DNA of 64,000 bases, from the UHGV virus genome UHGV-0229283. One strand, given 5' to 3'. This DNA is from a virus. The notes under the pieces were generated by a model. It was not told the DNA's origin. It ran no database searches and worked only from the letters and a program-made list of their open reading frames with translations. The position numbers and the translations under genes were made by a program. Shown here piece after piece: positions 26,790-28,247 of this stretch (within the stretch, counting starts at the first letter, position 1; every line of letters begins with the position of its first letter).

Positions 26790-28247
26790 ATGATCCACAC
26801 TTACGAGAAGAGTGAACATCTTCGAGAATACCATTTACTAAAAAGTTTTTTCTCTGAGGATATTTACCATATCCTTCGTAGCCTCGATGTTATAATCGCA
26901 GGTGGCGCTATCACGGCTCTCTTTACCAACCGGGAAGTTAATGATCTCGACCTGTACTTCCGTTCATGGGATGACTTGGAGATCTTCATTACTTACATGA
27001 TGGATATAGACCTACGAAAAGGTGAACATGACCTGTCACCTAAAACGATGGGATACAATGAAGAGAAACGTGTTTATCGTGATTTCTTCATTTTAGACAA
27101 TGGGAAAGAGGTATGGGAATCCCGTGCGCCAAGATTCAAGGTTCTTTCTCAGAAAGTGTCTAAGCAAGAGATCTTGGAGATGGAAGATAAGTTTGCCAGT
27201 GACTGCCCTTTTGATCTGTCTGATATCTCTGAATCGACTTGGGATGGTATTGAAAAACTGCTCGAAAGTAGAAAGAAGAAAGTCTCATATGTTCGTAATA
27301 TTGGCATGACAGATAAGAGCATTATGTTTTCAGAGGGTTCTAATCCGGTGATGCAATGCATTGCATTCTCGGTATTTGAGAACGCTGGGCAGATCTTTGA
27401 TAAGTTTGACTATACCATCAATATGGGTGCCTTCTCATTTGGTGATGAAACATGGGTGTTTGATAGTCGTTTCCTTAAACATGCTGCACAAAAAGTGTTG
27501 GTGCTTAATCCGGCCACAGATTACCCAATTATCAGTATGCTCCGAGCATCCAAGTATGAGGCCCGTGGCTATACAATCTCCCGACGTGAGACAATGAAGT
27601 TAGGTGTAGCAGCCGCAGGTCTTAAGATGGAAAGCTGGGAGGATGCCAAAAAGCATCTGAGTGGTATGTACGGGACAAACGTTGAAGAACTCTTCGATAC
27701 AAAAGAGCCGTTTTCATTTGAGAGATTATTTGATAAACTGGATAATGCAGGTGATATTGCTATCAGCACGATTGCCACTATCACCGACAAGCGTAAAGGC
27801 CAACGGCGTTTCAATCTCGAAGCTAAAGATATCTTCAATGTTTTCCAACGCCTGCGTAAAAACACCGATCGCCTGTATTTCAAGGAATTCTGGGCGGTAT
27901 CTAGTGCTGTGCATTTTTACATGATGCAGGCGCATACCGAAAAACACGTATTCGGTCTTAACAGCAATAGCATCGACAATCCAGAGATGCTAGATAAGAT
28001 CAGGATTTATTTTGATCTTGATGCTGCACAAGAGAGGTACAAGCTCTTATGCAAGAATGGGGTTCAGGGGAGTTGGCACGCAGGAGCGATAGAACCTGGA
28101 GCTTGCCTCTTTAAAGTTGACGTGGAAGACCCACTTGCCCTTGAATACGAGGGTGATGGTAGAGTATCTGTAAACCGAGAAGATAAAGCGCCTCGAAATA
28201 AAGTGACCATTGTTGAATTATTAGATTGTGATGGGGATCTCTCATGA
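26790..28247 (+). CDS. Pol-beta-superfamily nucleotidyltransferase-fold protein (function unknown)
   Basis: N-terminal motif IIAGGAITALFTNREVNDLDLYF matches hG[GS]-x(9-13)-DhD of Pol-beta/CCA-adding/poly(A) polymerase-type NTases. Start set at ATG 26790 with RBS aaaggagaccagaatg (track start 26649 overlaps a tRNA and terminator). Confidence 0.45.
   Translation: MIHTYEKSEHLREYHLLKSFFSEDIYHILRSLDVIIAGGAITALFTNREVNDLDLYFRSWDDLEIFITYMMDIDLRKGEHDLSPKTMGYNEEKRVYRDFFILDNGKEVWESRAPRFKVLSQKVSKQEILEMEDKFASDCPFDLSDISESTWDGIEKLLESRKKKVSYVRNIGMTDKSIMFSEGSNPVMQCIAFSVFENAGQIFDKFDYTINMGAFSFGDETWVFDSRFLKHAAQKVLVLNPATDYPIISMLRASKYEARGYTISRRETMKLGVAAAGLKMESWEDAKKHLSGMYGTNVEELFDTKEPFSFERLFDKLDNAGDIAISTIATITDKRKGQRRFNLEAKDIFNVFQRLRKNTDRLYFKEFWAVSSAVHFYMMQAHTEKHVFGLNSNSIDNPEMLDKIRIYFDLDAAQERYKLLCKNGVQGSWHAGAIEPGACLFKVDVEDPLALEYEGDGRVSVNREDKAPRNKVTIVELLDCDGDLS

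Follow-up and report, generated by a model that had tools for sequence, protein, structure and literature searches.

A predicted nucleotidyltransferase of the Gad2 family beside the tRNA array of a Mydovirus-type phage

What is the function of the 485-residue protein that is encoded directly after the tRNA array of the virus genome UHGV-0229283? The stretch of this genome that was analysed, which we call the window, is 64 kb long and comes from a Mydovirus-type phage of the Vequintavirinae, with 96-98% identity to the closest among 58 matching phage records, namely Klebsiella phages NDO71, KB57, and KPP-1 and Proteus phage Mydo. An earlier, sequence-only reading of the locus recognised a Pol-beta nucleotidyltransferase (NTase) motif and suggested a tRNA 3'-end maintenance or tagging enzyme or, as an alternative, an anti-defence NTase. 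We propose that the gene (26790..28247, + strand) encodes a phage counter-defence nucleotidyltransferase of the Gad2 family (PF26128), whose characterised members neutralise the Gabija system (GajA/GajB), and we put the probability of this assignment at about 0.6. The second of the earlier suggestions is supported by homology only.

The gene and its relation to Gad2

The open reading frame (ORF) that is found mechanically spans 26649-28247 and opens with a TTG at 26649, which lies within tRNA-Ala. We take as the credible start an ATG, at 26790, that stands 6 nt past the Shine-Dalgarno sequence AAAGGAG (26778..26784, + strand), which was read from the sequence and is kept in all Vequintavirinae orthologue loci. 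From this start, the gene has 485 codons plus the stop. The orthologue in Proteus phage Mydo, gp252, is of equal length (485 aa) and position and is annotated as a 'hypothetical protein'. With its Shine-Dalgarno sequence and this orthologue, the 485-aa gene that had been called at 26790-28247 is a real ORF.

Neither the protein nor its family profile gave an above-threshold match in sequence searches of Pfam, NCBIfam, PADLOC, or PDB. To that extent, the earlier statement that some 400 residues beyond the motif match nothing holds; it does not hold for precomputed Pfam assignments, since all 55 homologues in a large protein database, including the 97%-identical P0001, carry PF26128.2, and PF26128 has the name 'Gad2' (Gabija anti-defence 2). 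In PHROGs, the protein falls in phrog_16176, a family without known function, and its N-terminal part weakly matches a 'nucleotidyltransferase' PHROG (E = 1e-6). A tblastn search of phage genomes with the window protein led to the coding sequence annotated Gad2 in SPbetaL6. BLASTP against SPbetaL6 Gad2 aligned aa 188-317 with E = 4e-29 (38% identity) and aa 13-59 with E = 6e-12 (49% identity), and hhalign of a 48-member family profile against Gad2 gave a probability of 100% and E = 3.8e-65 over 332 columns, including the C-terminal domain. Judged from these alignments, the protein is a full-length Gad2 homologue with all of the family-invariant residues intact. A profile search of 1.84 billion cluster representatives (50% identity clusters) found 4,411 family proteins at E <= 1e-3, 2,081 at <= 1e-10, and 697 at <= 1e-30; the original report on Gad2 had 170 homologues (bioRxiv 10.1101/2023.05.01.538930).

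Gad2 is a 400-aa protein of SPbeta-like Bacillus phages with an AlphaFold-predicted nucleotidyltransferase domain; SPbetaL7 without gad2 becomes Gabija-sensitive, and a Gad2 homologue from a Brevibacillus laterosporus prophage blocks Gabija (bioRxiv 10.1101/2023.05.01.538930). The window protein resembles the Gad2 proteins of SPbetaL6 and SPbetaL7 in its full-length homology, in the same invariant NTase residues, in being encoded by a phage, and in its division into three parts, namely head, neck, and C-terminal beta domain. A helical insertion of about 90 aa, which follows motif A, brings it to 485 residues, against the 400 of SPbeta Gad2. Furthermore, its C-terminal domain is strongly diverged, and its host is Gram-negative. 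SPbeta Gad2 is encoded in a variable anti-defence locus, whereas the window gene is fixed between the tRNA array and the spanin and terminase genes; location in such a locus is a property of the SPbeta phages rather than a strict criterion for the family. Gad1 and Gad3 have the same proposed target system, Gabija, and have no sequence relationship to Gad2. Gad1 is recovered together with GajAB on purification and prevents it from cleaving DNA (bioRxiv 10.1101/2023.05.01.538930), whereas the proteins of the Gad2 family are predicted enzymes.

The catalytic core

The peptide IIAGGAITALFTNREVNDLDLYF, which had been read as a GG-x13-DLD Pol-beta motif, comprises residues 35-57. The motif is present and its residues are invariant, but the spacing is x12: the protein has AGG-x12-DLD, with G38, G39, D52, L53, and D54, and this spacing is also that of E. 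coli Cca and PcnB (GGxVRDxLLGxxxxDxD). Motif A of the NTase, residues 36-57 (IAGGAITALFTNREVNDLDLYF; 26895..26960, + strand), contains the catalytic D52 and D54 and aligns with PcnB; in the family it reads IAGGAITSLF..NDLDLYF, spaced as in class II tRNA nucleotidyltransferases and poly(A) polymerases. We find 20 invariant residues in a set of 42 representatives drawn from 41 clusters at <60% identity: A37, G38, G39, N51, D52, D54, Y56, F57, Q189, F203, D207, M212, F228, T243, P246, S249, R252, K255, Y256, and Y294. As a conservation pattern, these 20 residues are the signature of an active enzyme. The earlier NTase call is borne out by the invariance of the motif in the 42 representatives and by the predicted Pol-beta fold.

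Two more class II motifs have counterparts in the protein. That of motif B, residues 203-215 (FDKFDYTINMGAF; 27396..27434, + strand), where F203, D207, and M212 are invariant, aligns with RRDFTINS/RRDLTINA of PcnB/Cca, and the aligned positions in the window protein are D-K-F-D. In the family as a whole, RRD is changed to x-x-[FY]-D, one arginine position being variable and the other [FY], so that D207 alone is kept; FDKFDFTINMGAF of the Gad2 family, set against ..RRDFTINS.. of class II, keeps the aspartate and has lost both arginines. The counterpart of motif D with the neck, residues 240-264 (NPATDYPIISMLRASKYEARGYTIS; 27507..27581, + strand), where T243, P246, S249, R252, K255, and Y256 are invariant, aligns with (E)DPLRxLRxxRF. 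When T-x-Y-P-I-I-S-x-L-R-x-x-K-Y is compared with E-D-P-L-R-x-L-R-x-x-R-F, the templating ED falls in a gap and is missing, and the templating R lies opposite the invariant S249. The register of the motifs was identical in every comparison of the Gad2 family with class II.

A confident AlphaFold model made on the family alignment, with a predicted local distance difference test (pLDDT) of 82 and a predicted template modelling score (pTM) of 0.83, has a Pol-beta NTase fold. Its structural matches, the best of which are class II CCA-adding enzymes, include entries of the poly(A)-polymerase family, namely a bacterial poly(A) polymerase (3aql, 10.6) and the tRNA-processing enzymes 3wfo and 4wby (both 9.9), as well as TENT5B (6jyj, 9.7). 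With the TENT5/FAM46 proteins, which are eukaryotic non-canonical poly(A) polymerases, the identity is 11-14% and there is no common C-terminal domain; the likeness is one of fold only.

The window protein has no match to PF01743, and 3/48 homologues match it weakly (best E = 0.0067). For the family consensus, PF01743 is the best Pfam match, covering the whole head domain, with E = 0.046 and 14.5 bits against a cut-off of 23. A 197-sequence family profile, compared with an 11-sequence class II profile, gave E = 2.4e-4 and a probability of 44%, with motifs B and D in register; the class II profile was made from phage enzymes, and a database search with E. coli Cca gave only sequences of at least 87% identity. 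The hhalign comparisons of the family with the single E. coli Cca and PcnB sequences were not significant (E = 0.004-0.36) and showed the motif register only. Thus, the sequence evidence for class II kinship is below threshold but consistent. The catalytic part of the protein is a Pol-beta head with a helical neck, built like the class II tRNA nucleotidyltransferases and poly(A) polymerases, without their base-templating residues.

Two other identities were rejected. A CD-NTase is not indicated by any sequence or fold match, and no PADLOC family, the CD-NTases included, matches the protein. The toxin-type minimal nucleotidyltransferases (MNT, MenT, and AbiEii) are not the closest relatives, either by fold or by sequence.

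A Foldseek search of BFVD found the NTase part in many giant-virus proteins, where it is fused to ankyrin, F-box, BTB, or VWFA domains. The viruses include Pithovirus, Klosneuvirus, Hokovirus, and Pandoravirus (E = 1e-7 to 1e-3), and there is also a match to a Clandestinovirus 'CCA-adding enzyme'.

The insertion and the C-terminal domain

The helical variable insertion of about 90 residues (about residues 75-165; 27012..27284, + strand) follows motif A. It is found in the Vequintavirinae versions only, is absent from SPbetaL6 Gad2 and most family members, and is modelled with pLDDT 57-77.

At the other end of the protein, residues from about 345 to 485 (27822..28244, + strand) form a beta-rich domain, in the place where a CCA-adding enzyme has its helical body and tail. 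Modelled alone (residues 345-485), this domain has a pLDDT of 87.6 and a fold of the ADP-ribosyltransferase (ART) superfamily. In SCOP, the ADP-ribosylation superfamily (d.166.1) has the BC2332-like proteins as one of its families. The superfamily also includes Tpt1/KptA, Arr, PARP, and the DT-like toxins, but a catalytic triad is not matched: we found no conserved H-Y-E or R-S-E triad and no nicotinamide adenine dinucleotide (NAD) pocket in the domain. No residue of the protein is invariant past position 317. The best-conserved polar positions of the C-terminal domain are conserved to 56-67% across 197 members, and in the window protein they are A369, M378, and K442. A catalytically active ART domain was rejected on the lack of a conserved triad and the substitution of these polar positions. 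Because there is no invariant residue and the polar positions are substituted, we read the C-terminal domain as probably a binding module and not an ART enzyme.

A Pol-beta NTase active site joined to an ART-superfamily fold, which is typically a binder of NAD or ADP-ribose, could also belong to an enzyme that makes a cyclic or linear oligonucleotide, or another nucleotide derivative, as a decoy or inhibitor, for example, to keep GajA in a nucleotide-inhibited state. GajA is reportedly inhibited by nucleotides, and phage NTases that make competing nucleotides (versus STING ligands) have been described. However, the protein has no PADLOC match of the CD-NTase or any other kind, and no conserved catalytic or ligand-binding residues were seen in its C-terminal domain, so we consider a nucleotide signal to be quite improbable as its product.

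Genomic context and the tRNA 3'-end hypothesis

Is the position of the gene beside the tRNA array a clue to its function? The array (19443..26678, + strand) has 25 genes by ARAGORN and ends with tRNA-Ala at 26678. In 9/9 Vequintavirinae loci, among them Seunavirus, Avunavirus, Henunavirus, and Mydovirus records, the Gad2-like gene follows the tRNA array directly, and it does so in one distant relative as well (L020/L021, 27% identity). By contrast, in 54 of 61 other loci from IMG/VR there is no tRNA gene within 10 kb, and just 7/61 have any. The expectation that the gene always follows a tRNA cluster therefore failed outside one lineage, and a family-wide link to tRNA genes was rejected, since the arrangement is confined to the Vequintavirinae and the one distant relative.

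In 36 lineages outside the Vequintavirinae, genes of DNA replication and nucleotide metabolism prevail among the four on each side: Pol III alpha, sliding clamp, primase, DNA ligase, ThyX, dCMP deaminase, and a UvrD-type helicase. RNA-repair genes do occur. In the Cronobacter jumbo phage GAP32 (L010 4974-10319), the homologue GAP32_076 lies upstream of two T4-type tRNA repair genes, at 1.5 kb from RnlA and 3.3 kb from PseT, and in one metagenomic contig an RlaP NTase is two genes from the homologue. An Rnl1 neighbour is seen in one jumbo-phage clade only, 2/36 lineages. A family-wide link to RNA-repair genes was rejected as well, with Rnl1 in one clade, RlaP seen once, and DNA-replication genes dominating.

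The sequence-only reading offered the hypothesis that the protein maintains or tags tRNA 3' ends. The CCA of phage or host tRNAs would then be added, repaired, or tagged by the enzyme against trimming or cleaving defences. Class II CCA-adding enzymes are the best structural matches, the gene adjoins the array in the Vequintavirinae, and GAP32 and the RlaP contig place homologues near RNA-repair genes. Furthermore, GajA belongs to the OLD/TOPRIM nucleases, some of which, such as its relatives P2 Old and PARIS AriB, are tRNases. The remark that several tRNA genes lack an encoded CCA was correct for those at 19443 and 24122, and it extends to 22797. However, the other 22 of the 25 genes of the ARAGORN set already encode CCA. 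The protein lacks the motif B RRD and motif D EDxxR, by which CTP, ATP, and ribose are selected, its family matches PF01743 below threshold only, and it has the ART-superfamily beta domain instead of a helical body and tail for tRNA binding. The Gad2-like loci outside the Vequintavirinae are mostly free of tRNA genes and seldom near Rnl1, as described above.

The relatives of the phage provide a further argument, since those with a 97-98%-identical gene own a separate canonical tRNA nucleotidyltransferase. That of Klebsiella phage VLCpiM5b (118784-120031; L091 1501-2748) has 415 aa, is encoded about 42 kb from the Gad2-like gene, and aligns with the head and neck part of E. coli Cca at 54% identity (E = 2e-68). 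Canonical enzymes are also present in the Gad2-like carriers K54_rec2, 4MG, SalP219, EspYZU14, CR3, and Vibrio phage 495E54-1, and the jumbo phages CBB and fHe-Yen9-03 have both genes. A tRNA nucleotidyltransferase has been reported in Certrevirus CB7 too (PMC7344957). No canonical tRNA nucleotidyltransferase gene was found within the 64-kb window, which does have a T4-Rnl1-type RNA ligase gene (11684-12604, - strand) upstream of the array. With the class II determinants missing, CCA encoded in most of the tRNA genes, a separate Cca-like enzyme, and lineage-specific synteny, we consider a tRNA 3'-end function to be highly improbable.

The relation of the window protein to the class II family (PF01743 + PF12627) can now be stated. 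It shares with these enzymes motif A GG-x12-DxD, '(D)FTIN', and 'P..LR..[KR][FY]' in register, but it is only 9-16% identical to them, its Pfam match is below threshold, RRD is replaced, ED is absent, and R lies opposite S249; the class II enzymes have a helical body and tail, the Gad2 family has none, and the phage lineage has a genuine class II enzyme elsewhere. The protein is like the class II family but is not a member of it, because three defining features were looked for and were not found. It is conceivable, though we think it very unlikely, that the Gad2 family is derived from class II tRNA nucleotidyltransferases, still works on RNA or tRNA 3' ends, and counters Gabija through RNA. 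If so, the activation of Gabija or its killing would involve an RNA step that has gone unrecognised so far, and the position of the gene where the tRNA array ends, including the ultra-conserved terminator and anti-Shine-Dalgarno element described below, would be functional rather than historical.

Expression of the gene and the case for a core function

The gene is separated from the array by an intrinsic terminator (26723..26750, + strand), GCCCCGC-TCTT-GCGGGGC, with 7 G-C pairs, a 4-nt loop, and a T-run. With this hairpin and the end of tRNA-Ala at 26678, the earlier description of the gene as the first ORF past the terminator of the tRNA operon is correct. The terminator is part of a conserved 58-nt intergenic element (26704..26761, + strand), which consists of a CU-rich stretch resembling an anti-Shine-Dalgarno sequence, the terminator hairpin, the T-run, and CTGGTA: ATCTCCTCTCCTTTGCCTC-GCCCCGC-TCTT-GCGGGGC-TTTTCTTTTT-CTGGTA. 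The element occurs once in the window, and other copies are located at about 9915-9975 in loci L012-L019 and at about 9870-9930 in L021. It is almost base-for-base identical between Vequintavirinae genera, whereas the flanking proteins are just 41-48% identical. In the predicted RNA fold (z = -3.8), the terminator hairpin is enclosed by a pairing of the CU-rich UCUCCUUUG with the Shine-Dalgarno sequence that belongs to the Gad2-like gene. No covariation in the Vequintavirinae loci supports this pairing, because both of its sides are invariant, and the structure is unproven. The predicted fold suggests that the conserved upstream element may control translation of the Gad2-like gene.

The stop codon of the gene overlaps the start of the i-spanin ORF (28244-28648, + strand) in ATGA, 28244-28247. 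The o-spanin ORF (28645-28935, + strand), with a lipobox LVGC in its translation, follows, and past it is a second terminator (28941-28968, + strand), after which come the large terminase and portal genes. The spanin genes are annotated 'Rz-like spanin' in Mydo, 4MG, and Av-05.

Several observations weigh against a role of the window gene in counter-defence. Its translation is coupled to that of the spanin genes, where the late region begins, unlike the early expression that is typical of such genes, and no sigma-70-like promoter was found before it, where the terminator stands. Its fixed position in all Vequintavirinae genera examined is that of a conserved core gene, unlike an accessory anti-defence gene that shuffles. 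The two core segments that align with a tested Gad2 are just 38-49% identical to it, and divergence is far greater in the C-terminal domain. Inhibition of Gabija has been shown for two members only, both from Firmicute phages, and a 2026 review lists the mechanism of Gad2 as not elucidated (PMC12904381). The Pfam copy that was searched does not contain the PF26128 model (SPbetaL6 Gad2 itself is unmatched in it), so the missing Pfam match says nothing against membership in the Gad2 family.

These points raise the question of whether the protein has kept a Gad2-like fold for some other core task in the Vequintavirinae that is unrelated to Gabija, such as to tail or mark the DNA or RNA of the phage itself at a late stage of infection. 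Such a task would suit the identical position in every Vequintavirinae genus examined and in the 27%-identical relative, the stop/start overlap with the i-spanin gene in a unit between two terminators, and the strikingly conserved upstream element with its possible control of translation. The lineage-specific insertion of about 90 aa and the substitution of family-typical C-terminal residues (K, S, and E) in the window protein point in the same direction. However, at every invariant position of the catalytic core the protein has the residue of the validated Gad2 relatives, the homology to Gad2 extends over the full length, and no neighbouring gene suggests another substrate or partner. Wide conservation also fits constant selection by a widespread defence such as Gabija. 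We therefore regard a separate core function as unlikely and prefer the assignment to Gad2-type counter-defence.

Proposed mechanism and implications

If the protein acts as Gad2 does, it would also counter Gabija in a Klebsiella-type phage. Catalysis would be a two-metal transfer of a nucleoside monophosphate from a nucleoside triphosphate in the cleft between head and neck, with D52, D54, D207, R252, K255, and Y256 taking part. The acceptor that we would favour is a nucleic-acid 3'-OH, that is, the DNA ends or nicks sensed by Gabija, because the head-neck architecture is like that of CCA-adding enzymes, poly(A) polymerases, and TENT5, because DNA-replication and ligase genes are found in the neighbourhoods of the family elsewhere, and because family members are toxic on over-expression. 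This toxicity was seen with SPbetaL7 Gad2 (bioRxiv 10.1101/2023.05.01.538930) and fits an enzyme acting on host substrates. The ART-like domain would serve as a substrate-binding module. Alternatively, the enzyme might nucleotidylate GajA or GajB, or it might make an inhibitory nucleotide. We take the location of the gene beside the tRNA array to be inherited Vequintavirinae synteny with no functional link.

The Gad2 family itself is already known, and the window gene is an unannotated member of it, ordinary and explainable; the findings are not so surprising as to alter thinking on Gad2 or on Gabija counter-defence. What may be new for the family is the class II-like core without RRD, ED, and R, the ART-superfamily fold of the C-terminal domain, and the real family size. 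The stripped-down class II head and neck, the exchange of the tRNA-binding part for an ART-superfamily domain, and the 20 invariant residues are handles on the action of Gad2. The gene, a 'hypothetical protein' in essentially every Vequintavirinae record examined, can be labelled as a Gad2-family nucleotidyltransferase. Among the Vequintavirinae are candidates for therapy against Klebsiella, E. coli, Salmonella, and Cronobacter, and if the function is confirmed, Gabija is expected to be a poor barrier to these phages.

Neighbouring genes and the tRNA array

Upstream of the tRNA array, besides the RNA ligase gene, are genes for a metallophosphoesterase (13112-13705, - strand), a phosphoribosyl pyrophosphate (PRPP) synthetase (15624-16424, + strand), and a NAMPT-family enzyme of NAD salvage that is NARP2-like (16432-18186, + strand). 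The Gad2-like gene and the tRNA array are within a stretch that is rich in counter-defence, RNA-repair, and host-independence functions (RNA ligase, NAD salvage, and tRNAs). In Erwinia phages, gad2, as flagged by public tools, shows perfect co-occurrence with the NAD-salvage pathway NARP2 (PMC13480210).

Rfam adds to the 25 ARAGORN genes one tRNA-like match at 22882-22960 (34.9 bits), which ARAGORN missed, so the array has about 26 tRNA genes and not the 29 or so first counted. This sequence comes directly after tRNA-Leu(taa), a gene without an encoded CCA. Small ORFs are interspersed among the tRNA genes of the window. In Mydo, an HNH endonuclease gene lies between tRNA-Asn and tRNA-Asp; the window has none there, and the two tRNA genes are 7 nt apart.

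The tRNA-like gene at 24122-24191 is 70 nt long and lacks CCA. According to ARAGORN, which lists it as 'tRNA-???', its anticodon has two bases (gt); its score with the tRNA model of Rfam is 38 bits. The gene is found in the same place in a different genus (phage 4MG, L013 7732-7801) and may be a non-canonical or decoy tRNA. In Mydo, 4MG, and Av-05 (L001 3392-4039; L008 204-851), a gene annotated 'tail fiber protein' (about 215 aa) lies within the tRNA region or ahead of it, far from the structural module.

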